Of a DNA stretch of 64,000 bases, positions 1,832-50,013 are shown one piece after another. Positions within the stretch are counted from its first letter, which is position 1, and every line of letters begins with the position of its first letter. Origin of the DNA: Acutalibacteraceae bacterium. GTDB taxonomy: Bacteria > Bacillota > Clostridia > Oscillospirales > Acutalibacteraceae. Location: NCBI GenBank assembly GCA_045536305.1, contig JAZSNH010000029.1:56225-120224 (forward strand), in the 5' to 3' direction. The notes beneath the pieces were generated by a model. The model did not search any database. It was given only the letters and a program-made list of their open reading frames with translations, and was not told the DNA's origin. Both the position numbers and the translations under genes were made by a program.

Positions 1832-2803
1832 CTTTTCTGCGTCCTTGATAAGCACCGCTTCTGTCAGCGCCGCCATATCGGAGAGCTTTTCAAGAGTTCC
1901 GCACATTCTGCGAAGAGAAGCGGCACCTGCAAGACCTGTCATATACCATGCGGTGTGCTTTCGTGCTTCTCTCATGCCTACCCTCTCGCCCTTGTACTCG
2001 CAGAGCTTGATGATGTGATTGTTCATCACCCTCAGCCGTTCCATAAGGGGCGGAGTATCGACAACACGGCAGTCATTAAGCCATGCGTTTATCTGCATAA
2101 ATATCCACGGATTTCCCAATGCGCCTCTGCCCACCATGACCGCATCACAGCCTGTTTCCTCCAGCATGTGAACCGCATCCATGGCTCCGTTTATGTCTCC
2201 GTTGCCGATAACGGGAATACTGACTGTATTTTTTACTTCCTTTATTACATTAAGATCTACGGGAGGAGCGTACATCTGCGCTCTTGTTCTGCCGTGAACG
2301 GTTATGGCGGCGGCACCTGCGGCCTCTGCCCTCTTTGCAACCTCAACAGCGGTAAGGCAGTTTTCGTCCCAACCTTTGCGGATTTTGACTGTTACCGGTA
2401 CATTGCCTGCGGCTCTGACCACCTCTGCGACCATTCTGCCGCACAGCTCGGGGTTTTTCATCAGCGCACTGCCGCCGCCGTTGCCGCTTATCTTCGGCGC
2501 AGGACAGCCCATATTTATATCTATCGCCTCGGGATTGCTTTCAAGCGCCTTTTCAACCGATGCAGCGACGATAAGCGGGTCATCGCCGAAAAGCTGTATC
2601 GCCATGGGGCGCTCCTTTTCAGATATCTGCATAAGTGCGGCGGATTTTCTGTCGTGCATGGTTATTCCCTTGCCCGATACCATTTCGCTGACGCACCACG
2701 CCGCACCGTAGCCGACGCACAGCTCTCTGAAGGCGCGGTCGGCAACCCCTGCCATGGGAGCCAGTATAACCTTGCCCGAAAGCTCGGTATTTCCAATCTT
2801 CAT
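1811..2803 (-). CDS. dusB: tRNA-dihydrouridine synthase
   Basis: 330 aa. LAPMAGVADRAFR near the N-terminus and the DINMGCPAPK active-site Cys motif are typical of Dus-family FMN TIM-barrel enzymes. Confidence 0.9.
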   Translation of the reverse strand: MKIGNTELSGKVILAPMAGVADRAFRELCVGYGAAWCVSEMVSGKGITMHDRKSAALMQISEKERPMAIQLFGDDPLIVAASVEKALESNPEAIDINMGCPAPKISGNGGGSALMKNPELCGRMVAEVVRAAGNVPVTVKIRKGWDENCLTAVEVAKRAEAAGAAAITVHGRTRAQMYAPPVDLNVIKEVKNTVSIPVIGNGDINGAMDAVHMLEETGCDAVMVGRGALGNPWIFMQINAWLNDCRVVDTPPLMERLRVMNNHIIKLCEYKGERVGMREARKHTAWYMTGLAGAASLRRMCGTLEKLSDMAALTEAVLIKDAEKKKTDSR

Positions 2804-2925
2804 AGTATATCTCTCCGTTTCGAAGCTTTTGATATTTTAGCATAAAGTGACCGATGTATCAAGCGTCAAAAGTCAAGTGCCGCCGCAGCGGAGATTCCGT
2901 CACGGCGGCACATATCATCAAAATT

Positions 2926-3570
2926 TCAAGGATTCTTTTTAAGCACAAGCTCTGCCCTGTCGCCTGTCAGCTCGTCGGTGTAATAAATCGTCAGCGTATC
3001 GCCCGAAAGACTGCACTTTGCGGCCTCGTCGGAGGATGCGCCCTCTGCGAAAAGTACAAGCTCTTCGCCTGTAAATGAAAAGCTGTCAAGGTCGCGGTAA
3101 TCGGAGAGCGAGCAGTCACTGTTCAGAGTAAAGAACAGGGTGTCGCCATCGTACCATGAGCCGAAGATACCTTCATCTGACGTGCCCTTTTCGGGAAGTC
3201 CCGTACCGCCTGCAATGCCTTCGGCAGAACGGCAGTAATATTTTCTCGAGGTAAAATATCCGCCGATATCGGAGGATAGCCTGAGGATGTTGCCGTCTGT
3301 GTAAAATTCGAGCGAGGCGGTGCTGCCGGGGAGCATAGTATCCCATGTGATGGTGCTGCCCTCTATCTTGTAGAGGGAGCTGTAATTATTTGTGCCTGTG
3401 ACGGTGCCGTCTGAGTGAATGCTTCTGTATGGAGCGCCGCTGTAGGTGTACCAGTCGCCGAGAATAAGCTCGGTGACTGTTTTTTCGGAAACAGCTTTAC
3501 CGCACCCGATAAAGGTGAGCAGGCAGACAATTGTCAGAACAGCAAGAAAAACAGATAGCAGTTTTTTCAT
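2926..3570 (-). CDS. putative lipoprotein (function unknown)
   Basis: ORF track 2926..3633. The internal ATG at 3570 gives MKKLLSVFLAVLTIVCLLTFIGCGK, a signal peptide with a lipobox-like Cys. No catalytic motif recognised. Confidence 0.55.
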   Translation of the reverse strand: MKKLLSVFLAVLTIVCLLTFIGCGKAVSEKTVTELILGDWYTYSGAPYRSIHSDGTVTGTNNYSSLYKIEGSTITWDTMLPGSTASLEFYTDGNILRLSSDIGGYFTSRKYYCRSAEGIAGGTGLPEKGTSDEGIFGSWYDGDTLFFTLNSDCSLSDYRDLDSFSFTGEELVLFAEGASSDEAAKCSLSGDTLTIYYTDELTGDRAELVLKKNP

Positions 3571-4203: not shown

Positions 4204-6330
4204 TTATTCCTTCATTGCAGCCCTTGCACGGGAGATAAGCTCCTCCTGAGCGTTTACGATGCCGTTCGGGCGCTCTGAATAGGGAACCTCTTCTTCCAGG
4301 CCGAAATCAAAGATCCCATATTCGGAAGGCCTTTTGGGAATATAGTCTGAAAGGGTTTTGTATTTTCCACCCTCAGCGAGAATGCGTGCTTTTACCGTGT
4401 CTGTCCAGTAAAGCTCCGTTTCTTCTATGACACGATCACGGACTTCTTCGTTGAGCAGGGGGAAAAGCAGCTCCACACGCTTTGAAAGGTTGCGCGTCAT
4501 AAGATCGGCACTGCCGAGATAGACCTTTCGCTCTTTTCCAGTGCCGAAAATATAGACCCTTGTATGCTCAAGATGTCTGCCCACAACGGAACGAACCTCG
4601 ATATTGCCTGCGGCGTCGCGACTTGTTGGGTCGAGGCTGCATATACCGCGAACCAGCAGGCGGATCTTGACTCCTGACTGAGCGGCGAGATATAGACGGT
4701 CGATCATGTCGGGGTCTGAGAGAGAATTCATTTTGCCGTAAAATTCTCCCTGACCGCCGTTTGCGGCCTTTTCTGACTCCTTCTCAAGAAGCTCGTAAAC
4801 GGTGCTTCTCATAGAGTGAGGTGCCATTACAAGGTGCAAAAGCTCAGGCTTGCGGAAGAAGCCCGTTATGCTGTTGAAAAATGCGGTGGCATCGCTGCCG
4901 AGGGTCTCTTCGCAGGTCAGAAGACCGTAGTCGGTATACATTTTCGCTGTGGAATCGTTATAGTTTCCTGTTCCGAGGTGCAGATACTGGCGCACTCCGT
5001 CGTCCTCGCGGCGGACAACAAGGGTTATCTTGCTGTGTGTTTTGAGATCCTCGACGCCGTAGACGACATTTACACCCTTTTTCTTCAGCTCTTCGCCGTA
5101 GGTGATATTGTTTTCCTCGTCAAAGCGCGCCTTAAGTTCGACAAGAGCCGTTACCTGCTTGCCGTTTTCTGCGGCGGCCTCGAGAGCCTTTATTATGGGG
5201 CTGTTGTTGGAAACTCGGTACAGGGTCTGCTTTATGGCTATTACATTGGGGTCATCGGCAGCCTGATTTAAGAATCTGACAACAGGATCGAAGGAGTCAA
5301 AGGGATGGTGAAGCAGAATGTCGCCCTTTCTTATTTCTTCGAATATATCTGCCTCGGCGTCTCTGAGACGAAGCGGCATATTGGGGACATAGCGCTCGTA
5401 TTTGAGAGCGTCGAAGCCGCCGAGACCGTACAGCTCCTTCATAAGGAAGGTAAGGGAAATAGGTCCGCAGGATTCGTAGACATCCTTTTTCTCAAGGCCG
5501 AATGCCTTTGTAAAGAATTTAATAAGCTTGTTGTCGCAGCCGCGCTCCATTTCAAGACGGATGACTGCGCCCTTTTTACGTTTTTTAAGGGATTTCTTGA
5601 TCTCTGCAAGCAGATCCTCCGCCTCTTCCTCGTTTATATCGAGATCACCGTTTCTGGTGATGCGGTAGGGGGTGCAGGAGATAACACGGAAGCCGCCGAA
5701 CAGCTTGCCGATATTAAGCTTTATTACATCCTCAACAGGGACATAGGTGTGCTGGCGTATACGGAAAAGACGGGGGAAATTGGAGGGCACCTGCACGGTG
5801 GCAAAGGCTGCTTCTTCCTCGGAATCCTCAACCATTACGGCGAGATTCAGCGCGCGGTTGGCTATAAAAGGGAAGGGATGACTTTTGTCTATGGCAAGGG
5901 GAGTCAGAACAGGATAAAGAGAACTGTCAAAAAAGCCCTCGCAGTATGCCTTCTGCTCGTCCGAGAGCTGATGGGCACGAAGTATCCTTATATCGTGCGT
6001 CTCAAGCTCGGGAAGGATATCCTCGACATAGGTGTCGTAAAGATCCACGGTCATTTTCTTTACGCGCTTTGCAATAGAGGAAAGCTGCTGCTTTGCCGAC
6101 ATTCCGCCCGGGTCGGTGGAATTGCCCTTGGCGTTCAGCTGGTCTCTGAGAGAAGCCACACGCACCATGAAAAATTCATCAAGGTTCGAGCATACTATAC
6201 TCATAAAGTTCATTCGCTCAAAAAGCGGATTGCCCATATCCCTTGCCTGCATCAGAACTCTCTGGTTAAATTCAAGCCATGACAGCTCACGATTTATAAA
6301 ATTGGATTCAGAAAAGACGGTAGTGCCCAT
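4204..6330 (-). CDS. ppk1: polyphosphate kinase 1
   Basis: 708 aa. N-terminal FINRELSWLEFNQRVL signature and two C-terminal PLD-like modules (HSKITLV, GSADLMTRN). Confidence 0.95.
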   Translation of the reverse strand: MGTTVFSESNFINRELSWLEFNQRVLMQARDMGNPLFERMNFMSIVCSNLDEFFMVRVASLRDQLNAKGNSTDPGGMSAKQQLSSIAKRVKKMTVDLYDTYVEDILPELETHDIRILRAHQLSDEQKAYCEGFFDSSLYPVLTPLAIDKSHPFPFIANRALNLAVMVEDSEEEAAFATVQVPSNFPRLFRIRQHTYVPVEDVIKLNIGKLFGGFRVISCTPYRITRNGDLDINEEEAEDLLAEIKKSLKKRKKGAVIRLEMERGCDNKLIKFFTKAFGLEKKDVYESCGPISLTFLMKELYGLGGFDALKYERYVPNMPLRLRDAEADIFEEIRKGDILLHHPFDSFDPVVRFLNQAADDPNVIAIKQTLYRVSNNSPIIKALEAAAENGKQVTALVELKARFDEENNITYGEELKKKGVNVVYGVEDLKTHSKITLVVRREDDGVRQYLHLGTGNYNDSTAKMYTDYGLLTCEETLGSDATAFFNSITGFFRKPELLHLVMAPHSMRSTVYELLEKESEKAANGGQGEFYGKMNSLSDPDMIDRLYLAAQSGVKIRLLVRGICSLDPTSRDAAGNIEVRSVVGRHLEHTRVYIFGTGKERKVYLGSADLMTRNLSKRVELLFPLLNEEVRDRVIEETELYWTDTVKARILAEGGKYKTLSDYIPKRPSEYGIFDFGLEEEVPYSERPNGIVNAQEELISRARAAMKE

Positions 6331-46757: not shown

Positions 46758-48224
46758 TCACTGCTTTGGGGTATAGCTGTAGAGCAATCGGGTATTTACC
46801 TTCCTCGTGTCTGAGGCCGTATATACTGTGTCGCTCCAGCTGCTGAAGGAAGTCCACTTGCTGTAGCTATAGCTGTAGGAACTGACAGAACGTGTACGGT
46901 AATAATATTTTGTGTATGCAGGTGTCACTGTAGTTTTGTTTTCGGTAACATGATAATAATATCTTCCTGTGCTGCTGTCGCGATATTTTGTTCCTGAGCC
47001 GGCGTGTCCGCAGCTCCAGGAGCCCGCTGTGGGCAGCTTGCTGTCTCTGGTGATCTTGATCTCACTCCATGAACGGGAGGGATACTGGGCTTTTGCACAG
47101 GTCAGACAGTAATGAAAATGGGCTGTAGCTCCGCTTTTTGTGCCTCTGTAGCCTCTGTATGTATAGGTCGTCTTATAGGTTGCGGCAATATTTTCGGTTT
47201 TATCAATTTTCAGAGTCTCCGATTCCGTTACCGCACTGTTGCTGGTTTGCTGATCGCTCCAGGCCGAATAGTTCGGTGTTTTTGAAACTTGAGTCCAGCC
47301 GGTGAGGCTGCTGTTGGGAGATACCGTGGTGACTTTATCGGAATACTGATATTGCTTTTTGCTTTTGATTGTAGCGTTCTCAGAGCTTATTCCGGAGGGA
47401 AGCTCGTCCTTGGTCATCCAGGGAGAGGACGTTGCTTTTGTTGTGGTAGTGGTTTTCTTTGCGGTCGTAGTAGTAGATCTTCTTGTGGTAGTAGTGGTTT
47501 TCTTTGTGGTTGTGGTCGTGGTCGTGGCAGCAGAGGTTTCCTTTGCTGCAGTAGTGGTCGTTGTATTGTTTTTTGATTCCTGCGTGGTGGTAGTAGTGAT
47601 GACAGGCGGTTCTGGAGGGCCGGGCTGTGGCTGCGGATCAAAAACACCGAGTGCTTTGGCGGCAAAAGCGCATGCGGCAACAATGAGAACGAGAGATGCT
47701 GCGATGATTATTTTGCGAATTGCCGGGCTCGAAGACTTCTTTATGGGAACATCTTGCGGCACTGTGTCATTGGATGTCCCGTTTAATGCCGAGTAGATAC
47801 GGTTTGCGGTTTCGTCGGGGGACTCACCTTTGACATAAGGAACGCCGTGAAGATGGGTAAGATCGACATAAAAGCCTATGCTGTAGGTAGGTACTTTTGA
47901 AGGATCTATCTCATCAAGAAATACAGGAATAATGCGTTTATTATAGAGCAATGCCTCGGAATATTCTTTTCTGACATAGCTTTTTTCTTTTTTGAACAGG
48001 TGCTTTGTTACAAAGAGAATGACAACATCGCACTTTGAAATATGCTCTGCTATCTGTGTTTCCCATTCAAGTCCGTATTCAAGTCCGTAATCATACCATA
48101 TCGGAACACCTTTGGAATCGAGCGCCTGCGCTACCTTGCTTATACGATTTGTGTCTTCGTTGTTGTAGCTTATAAAGTTGAATTTATCGGTATAATGAGG
48201 AATAAAGCCAAAATCAGTTGCCAT
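46758..48224 (-). CDS. TIR-domain transmembrane protein (N-terminal TIR, TM helix, poly-Thr stalk, Trp/Tyr-rich C-terminal domain)
   Basis: ORF track 46758..48317; ATG at 48224. FNFISYNNED...ISKVAQALDSKGVPIWYDY...IAEHISKCDVVILFVTKHLFKKEKSYVRKEYSEAL fits the TIR_2 pattern, including S-x4-E. TM helix IIIAASLVLIVAACAFAAKALGV. Hinge PQPQPGPPEPP. Thr-rich stalk of ~55 aa. C-terminal domain of ~220 aa. Confidence 0.7.
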   Translation of the reverse strand: MATDFGFIPHYTDKFNFISYNNEDTNRISKVAQALDSKGVPIWYDYGLEYGLEWETQIAEHISKCDVVILFVTKHLFKKEKSYVRKEYSEALLYNKRIIPVFLDEIDPSKVPTYSIGFYVDLTHLHGVPYVKGESPDETANRIYSALNGTSNDTVPQDVPIKKSSSPAIRKIIIAASLVLIVAACAFAAKALGVFDPQPQPGPPEPPVITTTTTQESKNNTTTTTAAKETSAATTTTTTTKKTTTTTRRSTTTTAKKTTTTTKATSSPWMTKDELPSGISSENATIKSKKQYQYSDKVTTVSPNSSLTGWTQVSKTPNYSAWSDQQTSNSAVTESETLKIDKTENIAATYKTTYTYRGYRGTKSGATAHFHYCLTCAKAQYPSRSWSEIKITRDSKLPTAGSWSCGHAGSGTKYRDSSTGRYYYHVTENKTTVTPAYTKYYYRTRSVSSYSYSYSKWTSFSSWSDTVYTASDTRKVNTRLLYSYTPKQ

Positions 48225-48342
48225 TTTTTTCACGCCTTTTAAAATATTAACAGAATAATCATAGTTGATATTTCTTAATAATTCAATAGGAAAAATTTTT
48301 TTGTGGAATACAAACAAATAATGTGGGTTTTATTGGTATAAC

Positions 48343-48377
48343 AAAACCTCTGAAAGATTATCTCTTTCAGAGGTTTT
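48343..48377 (-). terminator. intrinsic terminator (probably the original ychF terminator, now downstream of the RAYT insertion)
   Basis: AAAACCTCTGAAAG-attatct-CTTTCAGAGGTTTT is a 14-bp stem with a minus-strand T-run after it. It lies 10 nt beyond the duplicated ychF 3' end (48388-48412). Confidence 0.8.
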
Positions 48378-48387
48378 GAGAGTTTAT

Positions 48388-48412
48388 TCAGACATTGAAC
48401 AGGAAATGCAAG
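48388..48412. repeat. direct repeat, copy 1 (displaced duplicate of the ychF 3' end)
   Basis: TCAGACATTGAACAGGAAATGCAAG vs 48916-48940 TCAGACATTAAACAGGAAATGCACG (23/25). On the minus strand both encode H-F-L-F-N-V-stop. Confidence 0.85.
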
Positions 48413-48413
48413 G

Positions 48414-48923
48414 CTAATTGCCTGAGTACATTTTATCGAATTCCCAACGGGAGGGGTTTTCAAGAATATATGCGGCAATTTCATCATAATCATGCTGATT
48501 GCGAATTATATGCTCATAAAAGGATGTCTGGAATAATTTATTTATCGGCTTTACCCTGTTGCATTCTCTTGCGGTCAACGATTTATACGCACAGATTACA
48601 TCTGTAACCGTAGGGCGGGGGCTTGCTCCCGCAGTTTCACTCATGGTCAGAATAAAGTGTATATGATTGGGCATAATAACGTATTCGCGTATCTGCACAA
48701 AGGAATATCGTTTTTTAAGGAGCATCAGCTGCTCTTCTGCAATACTGCCGTATCGGGTAAGGTCGATTTTGGCGGGAGCAAGCCCCCGCCCTACGATATG
48801 TGACAGTATGCATTGGCGGTTTTGAGTACATATTGTAATAAAATAAGCACCCGAAGAACTGTAATCAAAATTATTCAATCGAGGGTGTTTTCTTTTTGGG
48901 TAATCATAAACAGACTCAGACAT
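48414..48923 (-). CDS. REP-associated tyrosine transposase-like (IS200/Y1_Tnp superfamily) protein
   Basis: ORF track 48414..49124, whose 5' part overlaps ychF. The ATG at 48923 gives a 169-aa protein starting MSESVYDYPKRKHPRLNNFDYSSSGAYFITICT. HUH motif MPNHIHFIL and Tyr motif SFYEHIIRN. Stop codon TAG. Confidence 0.75.
   Translation of the reverse strand: MSESVYDYPKRKHPRLNNFDYSSSGAYFITICTQNRQCILSHIVGRGLAPAKIDLTRYGSIAEEQLMLLKKRYSFVQIREYVIMPNHIHFILTMSETAGASPRPTVTDVICAYKSLTARECNRVKPINKLFQTSFYEHIIRNQHDYDEIAAYILENPSRWEFDKMYSGN
48609..48795. repeat. 24-bp perfect inverted repeat pair inside the RAYT-like CDS
   Basis: 48609-48632 CGTAGGGCGGGGGCTTGCTCCCGC is the exact reverse complement of 48772-48795, with a 139-bp spacer. 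Each arm is itself a near-palindrome (GCGGGaGC-AA-GCcCCCGC). Confidence 0.9.
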
Positions 48924-50013
48924 TAAACAGGAAATGCACGACATCGCCGTCCTGCATGATATATTCCTTGCCCTCAGAGCGGATAAGGCCCTTTTCTTTT
49001 GCCGCGGCAAGAGAGCCGCCAAGCTCGGTGAGCTTATCGTAGGCAATGACCTCTGCGCGGATAAAGCCGCGTTCGATATCGGAATGTATCTTGCCTGCCG
49101 CCTTCTGGGCTGTGGTGCCGTCAACTATCGTCCATGCGCGGACCTCGGGCTGACCTGCGGTAAGGAAGCTTATATAGCCGAGCAGGTGGTAGCCTGCTCT
49201 GATAAGGCGGTCAAGTCCGCTCTCCTCGAGGCCGAGCTCTGAGAGGAACATCATCTTTTCCTCTTCCTCCATGTCAACAAGCTGGGATTCGAGCTCTGCA
49301 CAGATGGGAAGCACCTCACTGCCCTCTGCCTCGGCAATGGCGCATACAGCCTTGTAATTTTCGTTGCTCTCGATTCCTGCGGAGAAATCCTCCTCGCTGA
49401 AGTTTGCGGCGTAGATCACCTTTTTTGAGGTGAGCAGAGAAACGGTGGAGAGTATCGCGTCCTCGTCCTCGGTGCGTTCAACAGCACGCGCAGGCTTGCC
49501 TGCATCGAGGGTCTCCTTGACTCGAAGCAGGAAATCAAGCTCGCTCTGCAGCGAGCGGTCGCCCTTGAGCTGTTTTCTGGTGCGGTCGATTCTTCGCTCC
49601 AGCACCTCTATATCGGAAAGAACGAGCTCAATATTTATGGTCTCGATATCCCTTGCAGGGTCAATGCTTCCGTCAACGTGGACGATATCGTCGTTTTCAA
49701 AGCACCTTACAACATGGACAACGGCGTCGCATTCGCGAATATTGGAAAGGAACTTGTTGCCGAGGCCTTCGCCGTGGCTCGCACCCTTTACAAGACCTGC
49801 GATATCAACAAATTCAAGTGCTGCATGAGTGACCTTGAGAGGGTTGTACACCTTTGCAAGCTCATCAAGTCTCCTGTCGGGAACATCGACAACGCCGATG
49901 TTCGGCTCGATGGTGCAGAAGGGGTAGTTTGCGCTGGGAGCGCCTGCATTGGTTATCGCGTTGAACAGTGTGGACTTTCCTACGTTGGGAAGTCCCACAA
50001 TACCGAGTTTCAT
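48916..50013 (-). CDS. ychF: ribosome-binding ATPase YchF
   Basis: ORF track 48916..50043. ATG 50013 follows a GGAGGAAA RBS. MKLGIVGLPNVGKSTLFNA P-loop, DIAGLVKGAS and the C-terminal TGS-like DGDVVHFLFNV. Confidence 0.95.
   Translation of the reverse strand: MKLGIVGLPNVGKSTLFNAITNAGAPSANYPFCTIEPNIGVVDVPDRRLDELAKVYNPLKVTHAALEFVDIAGLVKGASHGEGLGNKFLSNIRECDAVVHVVRCFENDDIVHVDGSIDPARDIETINIELVLSDIEVLERRIDRTRKQLKGDRSLQSELDFLLRVKETLDAGKPARAVERTEDEDAILSTVSLLTSKKVIYAANFSEEDFSAGIESNENYKAVCAIAEAEGSEVLPICAELESQLVDMEEEEKMMFLSELGLEESGLDRLIRAGYHLLGYISFLTAGQPEVRAWTIVDGTTAQKAAGKIHSDIERGFIRAEVIAYDKLTELGGSLAAAKEKGLIRSEGKEYIMQDGDVVHFLFNV

Follow-up and report, generated by a model that had tools for sequence, protein, structure and literature searches.

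RAYT genes (REP-associated tyrosine transposases, also TnpA_REP; REP, repetitive extragenic palindrome) are treated in the literature as immobile, domesticated and patchily distributed. The question of how they arrive in genomes is raised by a 64,000-nt stretch of DNA from an Acutalibacteraceae bacterium (Clostridia; assembly GCA_045536305.1, contig JAZSNH010000029.1, positions 56,225 to 120,224; hereafter the window), where a RAYT-like open reading frame (ORF) is wedged directly behind ychF, the gene of a redox-regulated ATPase, and the last codons of ychF are present twice. An original prediction for this locus proposed a minimal 528-bp Y1-transposase cassette, inserted with duplication of 25 bp of its target. 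Here we show, by comparison of sequences, that the ORF encodes a RAYT/TnpA_REP-type HUH-Y1 endonuclease, apparently resident and single-copy, and that it belongs to a known kind whose cognate GTAG REP hairpins sit in frame in their own coding sequence. The best explanation of the locus as a whole, whose chances we put at about even, is a resident RAYT behind ychF and a repeat that is the scar of recombination.

The predicted presence of a RAYT-like Y1 gene between ychF and what appears to be the original ychF terminator is supported. The ORF scores just above the cutoff of Pfam Y1_Tnp (25.1 bits, cutoff 23), and its best NCBIfam match is REP_Tyr_transpos, at 65.4 bits under the cutoff of 80; the RAYTs of the related loci L173, L177 and L153 likewise fall short of that cutoff (58-62 bits). 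The IS200/IS605 transposase model transpos_IS200 (NF033573) is not passed (19 bits, cutoff 55), PADLOC returned no match for the gene, and the only sequence relative in the PDB is Escherichia coli TnpA_REP (4ER8), with a similarity of ~25 bits. Homologues number 3645, mostly ~166 aa long and ~70% identical, from metagenome-assembled genomes of Clostridia (Acutalibacteraceae/Oscillospiraceae), and a few of them carry the label "REP element-mobilizing transposase RayT". Among 5.8 billion clustered proteins there is no relative nearer than ~73% protein identity (none between 73% and 99%), and an exact-sequence look-up of the window RAYT (P0001) and the window ychF matched no other contig.

The HUH motif had been placed in PNHIHFIL, correctly: H87 and H89 of MPNHIHFIL are invariant in alignment A1. 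The predicted tyrosine motif, SFYEHII, has to be replaced. The E. coli residue aligned with the SFYEH tyrosine is Trp, and the most likely catalytic tyrosine is Y152 of YILENP. Y152 aligns with the first Y of the dYIYINP stretch of 4ER8, which we take to be the catalytic Y115. Y152, N156 and P157 are invariant in A1, so that the catalytic signature of class-2 TnpA-Y1 proteins, Y---NP (PMC6006769), is matched.

Within the ORF lie two in-frame REP arms, which together form a perfect 24-nt inverted repeat with 139 nt between them; the unit GTAGGGCGGGGGCTTGCTCCCGC opens with the REP hallmark GTAG. The peptides they encode, VGRGLAPA and AGASPRPT, are nearly invariant in the family of homologues, the latter sitting ten residues after HUH, i.e. 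between HUH and Y. In the predicted single-stranded fold, the 24-bp stem of both arms encloses the HUH-coding segment and dominates the structure (z = -7.4). An identical 23-mer is found in homologues of only 67-70% protein identity, and also outside genes beside homologues (L001 at 3534, L004 at 4288); the 64 kb of the window contain no extragenic REP. In distant relatives (31-64% identity) the arm sequences differ, yet the arms remain complementary and GTAGGG-headed. The RAYT-REP pairing is therefore a true one.

In-frame REP insertions of variable length in tnpA_REP, mostly between HUH and Y, are the hallmark of subclass 2.4 (Quentin et al. 2018, PMC6006769), which equals RAYT group 4 of Bertels et al. 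2017 (PMC6006769), and we therefore dropped the REP pair as a novelty. This feature is matched by arm 2, by extra REPs that the L173 RAYT carries in the arm 2 region, and by tandem repeats in P0002 and P0004. The likeness is one of described features, and subclass 2.4 has been described mainly from Cyanobacteria and Bacteroidetes, whereas the clade of the window is Clostridia. Unlike subclass 2.4, the window RAYT has a second REP upstream of HUH, the pair making a REPIN-like 24-bp stem around the HUH-coding segment.

Three side observations concern REPs in relatives. P0002, P0004, P0009 and P0014 contain one to three in-frame tandem repeats beginning at arm 2 (NEAAGASPRPTIMDIVCAYKSLTTRE; A1 columns ~135-205), which suggests REP-associated slippage or duplication within the gene. 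The in-gene REPs of L177 (4237-4265 and 4413-4443) are oriented opposite to those of the window, the first running in reverse and the second forward; the HUH-coding segment that they enclose keeps its orientation, and the arms are only ~77% complementary. In a Candidatus Fimenecus metagenome-assembled genome (L032, 5110-5275), the interval between ychF and a tRNA gene holds an array of at least three GTAG-headed REP families, one of them identical to the 23-mer of the window, with no RAYT within 4 kb.

Coordinates of the locus are collected in Table 1. As predicted, the copy at 48916 terminates the real ychF, which scores 482 bits against TIGR00092 (cutoff 279). The two 25-mers described as direct repeats are confirmed, with 23 of 25 positions matching (22 of 23 for 48388-48410 against 48916-48938) at a spacing of 528 nt, and the 25-nt repeat has no further copy in the 64 kb, nor any in 100 shuffles. 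Each copy, taken on the minus strand, is CAT TTC CTG TT(T/C) AAT GTC TGA, or H-F-L-F-N-V-stop, so that the ychF C-terminus and stop are indeed present twice, and the interval between them is almost exactly one ORF, as stated, running from ATG at 48923 to TAG at 48414. The strong terminator noted past the 48388 copy, and thought ychF-ancestral in looks, folds as DNA to a hairpin of -17 kcal/mol (z = -9.5). It is probably the original terminator of ychF, now ending a ychF-RAYT transcript, because relatives that lack the RAYT have the ychF stop, 10-16 nt and then a terminator.

Table 1. Features of the ychF-RAYT locus, in window coordinates
Feature	Position	Strand	Remarks
ychF (redox-regulated ATPase)	48916..50013	-	365 aa counted from ATG at 50013; stop TGA 48916-48918; TIGR00092 1e-144
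Direct-repeat copy 1, functional ychF 3' end	48916..48940	-	overlaps RAYT start
RAYT/TnpA_REP-like Y1 HUH gene	48414..48923	-	169 aa; ATG within last ychF codons (A-ATG-TC-TGA)
In-frame REP arm 1 (GTAGGGCGGGGGCTTGCTCCCGC, coding strand)	48772..48795	-	encodes VGRGLAPA
HUH motif codons H87-I88-H89 in MPNHIHFIL	48657..48665	-	H87, H89 invariant in alignment A1
In-frame REP arm 2, reverse orientation	48609..48632	-	encodes AGASPRPT just past HUH motif
Probable catalytic tyrosine Y152 (YILENP; Y---NP signature)	48468..48470	-	
Direct-repeat copy 2, displaced non-coding ychF 3' end (HFLFNV-stop)	48388..48412	-	starts 1-3 nt past RAYT stop
Intrinsic-terminator hairpin	48342..48378	-	16-bp stem + T-run; 10 nt past displaced stop codon
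TIR-domain protein gene	46758..48227	-	Pfam TIR_2; probably separate cargo of same variable spot
Segment missing from RAYT-less L174/L175 and L176	46649..48919		BLASTN breakpoints

An Rfam scan of the same region gave a sub-threshold match to His_leader at 48338-48498 of the minus strand (36.6 bits, gathering score 49). This match reaches from the 3' end of the RAYT across the displaced repeat into the terminator, a run of His codons is lacking, and we judged it spurious and probably driven by the terminator hairpin.

Whether the arrangement is peculiar to the window was examined in related genomes. In a scan with one genome per species, none of 80 ychF loci had a RAYT within 4 kb of ychF. Same-genus loci were taken from the window's 90%-identity ychF cluster and from the cluster of P0122; their ychF (L012, L173-L179) is 97-98% identical to that of the window in protein and 85-96% in DNA. 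Five congeneric species (L012, L174/L175, L176, L178 and L179) provide the clean empty site that the original prediction implied, with stop, 10-16-nt spacer and terminator, and an outgroup with 87% ychF protein identity has no RAYT either. In L174 and L176 ychF is followed by the rnf operon, which is homologous to window 46648-43762; relative to them the window carries ~2.27 kb of extra DNA, made up of the RAYT, the displaced ychF end, the terminator and a TIR-domain gene.

Two further species have the RAYT at this place, and a private or recent 528-bp insertion does not describe the locus: the ychF-RAYT junction is common to the window, L173 and L177, with BLASTN alignments running unbroken from ychF into the RAYT (window-L173 85%, window-L177 81%). 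L173 has a TAATG overlap of ychF stop and RAYT start and REPs downstream, without a displaced ychF end; a REP (GTAG...) begins at its RAYT stop codon, where the window has its junction. L177 has a TGATG overlap, a REP doublet after the RAYT and then a 46-nt displaced ychF end (4747-4792, ~94 nt past the RAYT stop), with four mismatches to the functional copy; this displaced copy, its spacer and its terminator are orthologous to the native ones of L012 (84% over 69 nt). One left junction thus goes with three right junctions, at -25 nt in the window, at -46 nt in L177 and far downstream in L173. Identity between L173 and L179 is 96.6% in ychF and resumes at the PhoU terminator; in between, L173 has the RAYT and REPs (~0.7 kb) and L179 a terminator and a DZR gene (~1.5 kb). 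The same two loci are rearranged on both sides of ychF (L173 1-1657 and 6184-6214; L179 2926-2957 and 4365-5360): in L173 argS is not upstream of ychF, a 32-nt piece of the argS-ychF spacer lies ~3 kb downstream, and the DZR-domain gene is on the opposite side and in the opposite orientation.

The age of the gene can be read from synonymous divergence (dS). Between the window and L173, RAYT dS is 0.79 and ychF dS 0.78; the RAYT has a ratio of nonsynonymous to synonymous divergence (dN/dS) of 0.15-0.26, ychF one of 0.03. Equal divergence together with this ratio therefore argues for an old, selected resident gene: by these estimates the RAYT is old at the ychF site and under purifying selection, not a fresh transposition, and from its distribution it is an accessory gene present in some species only. 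At synonymous sites the RAYT of L177 has diverged far beyond its ychF (L173-L177, RAYT ~2.0 and ychF 0.60; window-L177, RAYT saturated and ychF 0.82); the RAYT block has therefore not just followed the species, and an independent history is indicated for it. In a neighbour-joining tree of ychF each RAYT-positive species is paired with a RAYT-negative one: L173 with L179 (d = 0.036, bootstrap 100), the window with L176 (bootstrap 98.5) and, weakly, L177 with L012 (d = 0.076, bootstrap 51.5). For RAYT genes, transposition as a unit is not known, and their spread is ascribed to ordinary gene transfer followed by loss (PMC6006769); they are typically single-copy and mostly vertically inherited (PMC5581495). 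The GC content of the RAYT, 41% despite two GC-rich REP arms (ychF 54%, window overall 49%), is consistent with an accessory or foreign origin.

These data bear directly on the original prediction of a minimal 528-bp Y1 cassette that duplicated 25 bp and took its start codon from the target, here read as a recent event. Repeats that flank exactly one ORF, the difference in GC from ychF, and the lack of a RAYT in L012, the closest sampled genome by ychF protein search, are what such an event would leave. Yet the ychF-RAYT junction is common to L173 and L177 at 15-26% nucleotide divergence; the 64-kb window has no second copy; no close relative of the protein emerged from the clustered proteins; and the repeat is not of fixed length, with 25 nt in the window, 46 nt in L177 and none in L173. 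The recent-transposition model is contradicted by these observations, and we regard it as very unlikely indeed.

The start codon tells against it as well. For the conserved PKRKHPR N-terminus of the RAYT to be kept, only one in-frame start is available, and it lies inside the last ychF codons; no Shine-Dalgarno sequence is visible upstream of the ATG at 48923, nor any promoter-like sequence of the RAYT's own. Stop/start overlaps of the same kind occur in L173 (TAATG), L177 (TGATG) and L153 (GTGA), and L173 and L177 have the junction motif T(A/G)ATGGATAATCTTCCG in common. The ancestral ATG, that of L173 and L177, is still visible in the window (TATGATTACCCA), out of frame after indels. The ATG of AATGTC became the RAYT start only after lineage-specific indels threw the ancestral one out of frame. 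The translational coupling to ychF thought probable at the outset is implied by a start inside the last ychF codons, and the overlaps in the three relatives agree with it. A second in-frame ATG (48942-48944, minus strand) lies 21 nt upstream of the proposed start, with AGGA at 5-nt spacing; it owes its origin to a synonymous change in ychF (GAC to GAT), and translation could begin there instead, driven by this Shine-Dalgarno sequence, to give a 176-aa protein.

On this arrangement, ychF and the RAYT would be co-transcribed, ribosomes ending at the ychF TGA would re-initiate at the ATG four nt upstream (termination-reinitiation coupling), and the transcript would stop at the old ychF terminator. 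The RAYT protein would nick and rejoin GTAG REP hairpins in single-stranded DNA, in trans, as E. coli and other TnpA_REP enzymes do (PMC8266576), and would not move its own gene. A housekeeping gene thus appears to supply the RAYT with all that it needs to be transcribed, translated and terminated, which gives a concrete picture of "domestication".

Homology-facilitated illegitimate recombination, or Campbell-type single-crossover integration, has one homologous and one illegitimate side, yields a duplication or deletion of recipient DNA, variable in length, at the illegitimate join, and leaves donor and recipient alleles side by side. At the ychF locus, a block of the ychF 3' part and the RAYT would have entered a ychF-terminator locus without a RAYT, homology within ychF making the left join. 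The right join would be illegitimate and would have fallen ahead of the resident stop, by 25 nt in the window and by 46 nt in L177, or far downstream in L173, which hence has no repeat. On this view the repeat copies would come from two distinct functional alleles of ychF, whose 3' ends now lie side by side.

Several observations fit this course of events. In the window as in L177 the repeat ends on the right precisely at the ychF stop codon, the point at which homology between ychF-RAYT and ychF-terminator alleles must cease. The differences within the repeat are all synonymous in the ychF frame, one of one in the window (TTT/TTC) and three of three in L177 (GTG/GTC, CAT/CAC, TTT/TTC), plus TGA/TAA, and the variant codon states are also seen in functional ychF alleles of other species. 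Neutral decay of a duplicate would give ~40% synonymous changes, and by a rough estimate the chance of the observed pattern is ~0.015. The copies differ by ~8%, where ychF diverges by 8-15% between species, far below what a neutral remnant would show at dS ~0.7. Variable repeat length and all-synonymous differences therefore lead us to favour, from these alignments, a recombination scar over a transposase-made target duplication. The repeat could also mediate precise loss of the RAYT, which fits its patchy distribution.

A number of points weigh against a scar. The argument from synonymous differences rests on only five sites, and no donor genome was found, the nearest RAYT being only ~73% identical in protein. 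Sliding windows, gene thirds and mismatch positions along ychF gave only weak, ambiguous signals and no clear donor tract ending at the RAYT. The process differs in this from described homology-facilitated illegitimate recombination. Equal RAYT and ychF dS between the window and L173 also fits vertical descent from one insertion. Both repeat copies of the window share GTC-TGA, where L173 has GTA-TAA and L177 GTT-TGA, which could mean gene conversion or a duplication within the lineage. A scar does not account for how the primary ychF-RAYT junction arose, and long direct repeats around distant RAYTs could be produced by a family-specific insertion mechanism. CT and CA are the cleavage dinucleotides used by TnpA_REP (PMC8266576), and we inspected the repeat boundaries for them and for microhomology: CT occurs at or next to the right junction in the window (GCCT|TGCAT) and in L177 (CACTG|CATCAT), the target sides have no matching CT/CA cleavage site in either, and we drew no conclusion.

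Some of the same facts can be read as a true target duplication, made when one ancestral RAYT with downstream REPs inserted at least 46 nt before the ychF stop. L177 would then be the original state; the window lineage would have deleted the REP spacer and 21 nt, leaving 25 nt, L173 would have lost the displaced copy in a rearrangement, and the RAYT-less species would have lost the gene by recombination between the repeats. The left junction shared by three species and the equal window-L173 dS agree with one insertion, as does the occurrence of TTC in both displaced copies against TTT in both functional ones; repeat-mediated deletion would yield exactly the clean empty sites observed, and the ychF end of L012 resembles a hybrid of the two copies of L177. 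Long host-derived repeats also flank the unrelated RAYTs of L166 (~120 nt) and L153 (~70 nt) and none of the 200 control ORFs. A neutral copy as old as the species split (dS ~0.7-0.8) should, however, be heavily decayed, and the displaced copies differ at just 2 of 25 and 4 of 46 positions, all synonymous-type, so that gene conversion or constraint is needed to explain their preservation. Between the window and L177, 18 of 22 positions of the coding remnant agree, while the spacers and terminators past the displaced copies cannot be aligned. The L177 RAYT is much more diverged than its ychF, at least three to five independent losses are required, and the repeats are of unequal length (25, 46, ~70 and ~120 nt). 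We know of no Y1/HUH transposase that makes target duplications. On balance we consider an ancestral target duplication rather unlikely.

The displaced ychF end might instead have come with the downstream DNA: a block of the last 25 nt of ychF, terminator and TIR gene, originating in a strain in which it stood behind ychF, would have recombined behind a resident RAYT, with homologous exchange toward rnf and illegitimate joining immediately behind the RAYT stop. In favour, the extra 2.27 kb of the window include the TIR gene. What lies between ychF and rnf varies, with DUF7668 in L176, a DZR gene in L179 and an inverted rnf in L178, and the REP that starts at the L173 RAYT stop codon marks the very site of the window junction. 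Native spacers of relatives (GTTTATTTGG and the like) have a counterpart in GTCTGTTTATGATT, which directly follows the functional ychF stop, but not in the spacer after the displaced copy; the resemblance is short and T-rich, however. The TIR protein has no close relative, so that a donor arrangement cannot be shown, and L177 has a displaced copy without a TIR gene, followed by the terminator of its own lineage. Such a downstream origin seems to us improbable, and we continue with the scar as the favoured reading.

Host-end repeats are not confined to ychF. Direct repeats scoring at least 20 flank the gene in 16 of 86 RAYT loci with sequence on both sides and in 0 of 200 size-matched control ORFs. 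Most of them contain REPs, a known REPtron architecture, and many are simply REPs in direct orientation. At L166, a near-perfect 120-nt repeat consists of the last 60 nt of an H+-PPase gene and its REP/terminator. At L153, ~70 nt of the end of the upstream ORF, for which Pfam and NCBIfam gave no identity, are repeated beyond the RAYT, and five of the eight codon differences are synonymous. In 15 of 65 RAYT loci a co-directional upstream ORF ends between -8 and +5 nt from the RAYT start, so that the family is in the habit of riding on host-gene ends. A flanking repeat at L132 was rejected as a host-gene duplication: a truncated, internally deleted RAYT with expanded GGHGNPA repeats stands directly upstream of an intact one (2199-3199), the same 57-61-nt sequence follows each copy, and the repeat belongs to this tandem duplication of the RAYT unit.

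The recurrence of host-end repeats at L166 and L153 is why we keep open a bolder reading, in which direct repeats would be att-like footprints of an undescribed RAYT mobility, a promoterless cassette integrating at the 3' ends of conserved host genes; we think this improbable. The hosts would be ychF, the H+-PPase gene and the upstream ORF of L153, with the RAYT start codon set on the host stop. Insertion would leave a long, variable host-end duplication, allow precise excision through the repeat and permit spread between species on a gene-end landing pad. The ychF locus, with closely related filled and empty sites and analogues at other host genes, can discriminate a scar from element-encoded insertion. 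If the conservative reading is true, it is an ordinary accessory-gene polymorphism with a recombination scar. The informative feature of the locus is the combination of presence/absence polymorphism and a scar that may help explain RAYT integration.

A sister RAYT behaves differently. A 1.55-kb unit with RAYT P0034, 67% identical to that of the window, occurs at L004 (2909-4461) and L005 (2415-3968) with 98.8% identity between the two loci. It contains P0034, a 253-aa ORF without a Pfam match and a REP, has 14-nt imperfect terminal inverted repeats, and each time splits a terminator hairpin (AAAACCCGCC...GGCGGGTTTT and GCCCCTCTGCC...GGCAGAGGGGC). From these features it looks like a mobile, TIRYT-like element that targets hairpins, alike in its terminal inverted repeats to the TIRYT/TIRtron of Di Nocera et al. 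2013 (PMC3733652). Unlike a TIRYT, the window RAYT has neither terminal inverted repeats nor any non-coding flanks.

Set beside other described systems, the window RAYT resembles the E. coli TnpA_REP/REPtron (4ER8), with which it shares the HUH-Y1 fold family, Y---NP and GTAG-headed cognate REPs. The E. coli gene is single-copy and not known to move as a unit, and the window RAYT is alike in having one copy in 64 kb. REPs flank the gene in E. coli, whereas in the window two are in frame inside it, and the window gene alone is fused to the end of ychF by a stop/start overlap. With the IS200/IS605 TnpA it has the Y1_Tnp domain in common, and a hairpin-recognising single-strand DNA chemistry is to be expected. 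IS200/IS605 elements have left-end and right-end hairpins outside the ORF, none of which is found at the window RAYT, which abuts ychF and the displaced repeat. To our knowledge these elements make no long flanking direct repeats or target duplications, and the window RAYT differs from them in its long flanking direct repeat; it is present in one copy in the 64 kb. An integrase-type genomic island with attL/attR at the 3' end of a gene would carry a tyrosine or serine recombinase gene inside the segment bounded by the repeats, which here contains no gene but the Y1 HUH ORF.

The TIR-domain protein encoded beyond the terminator has a Thr-rich linker and weak PADLOC TIR matches (SAVED_TIR/ThsB-like), and no close homologue among the 5.8 billion clustered proteins. 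At the same variable place between ychF and rnf, L176 carries a DUF7668 gene and L179 a DZR gene; defence or accessory genes may have a hotspot here.

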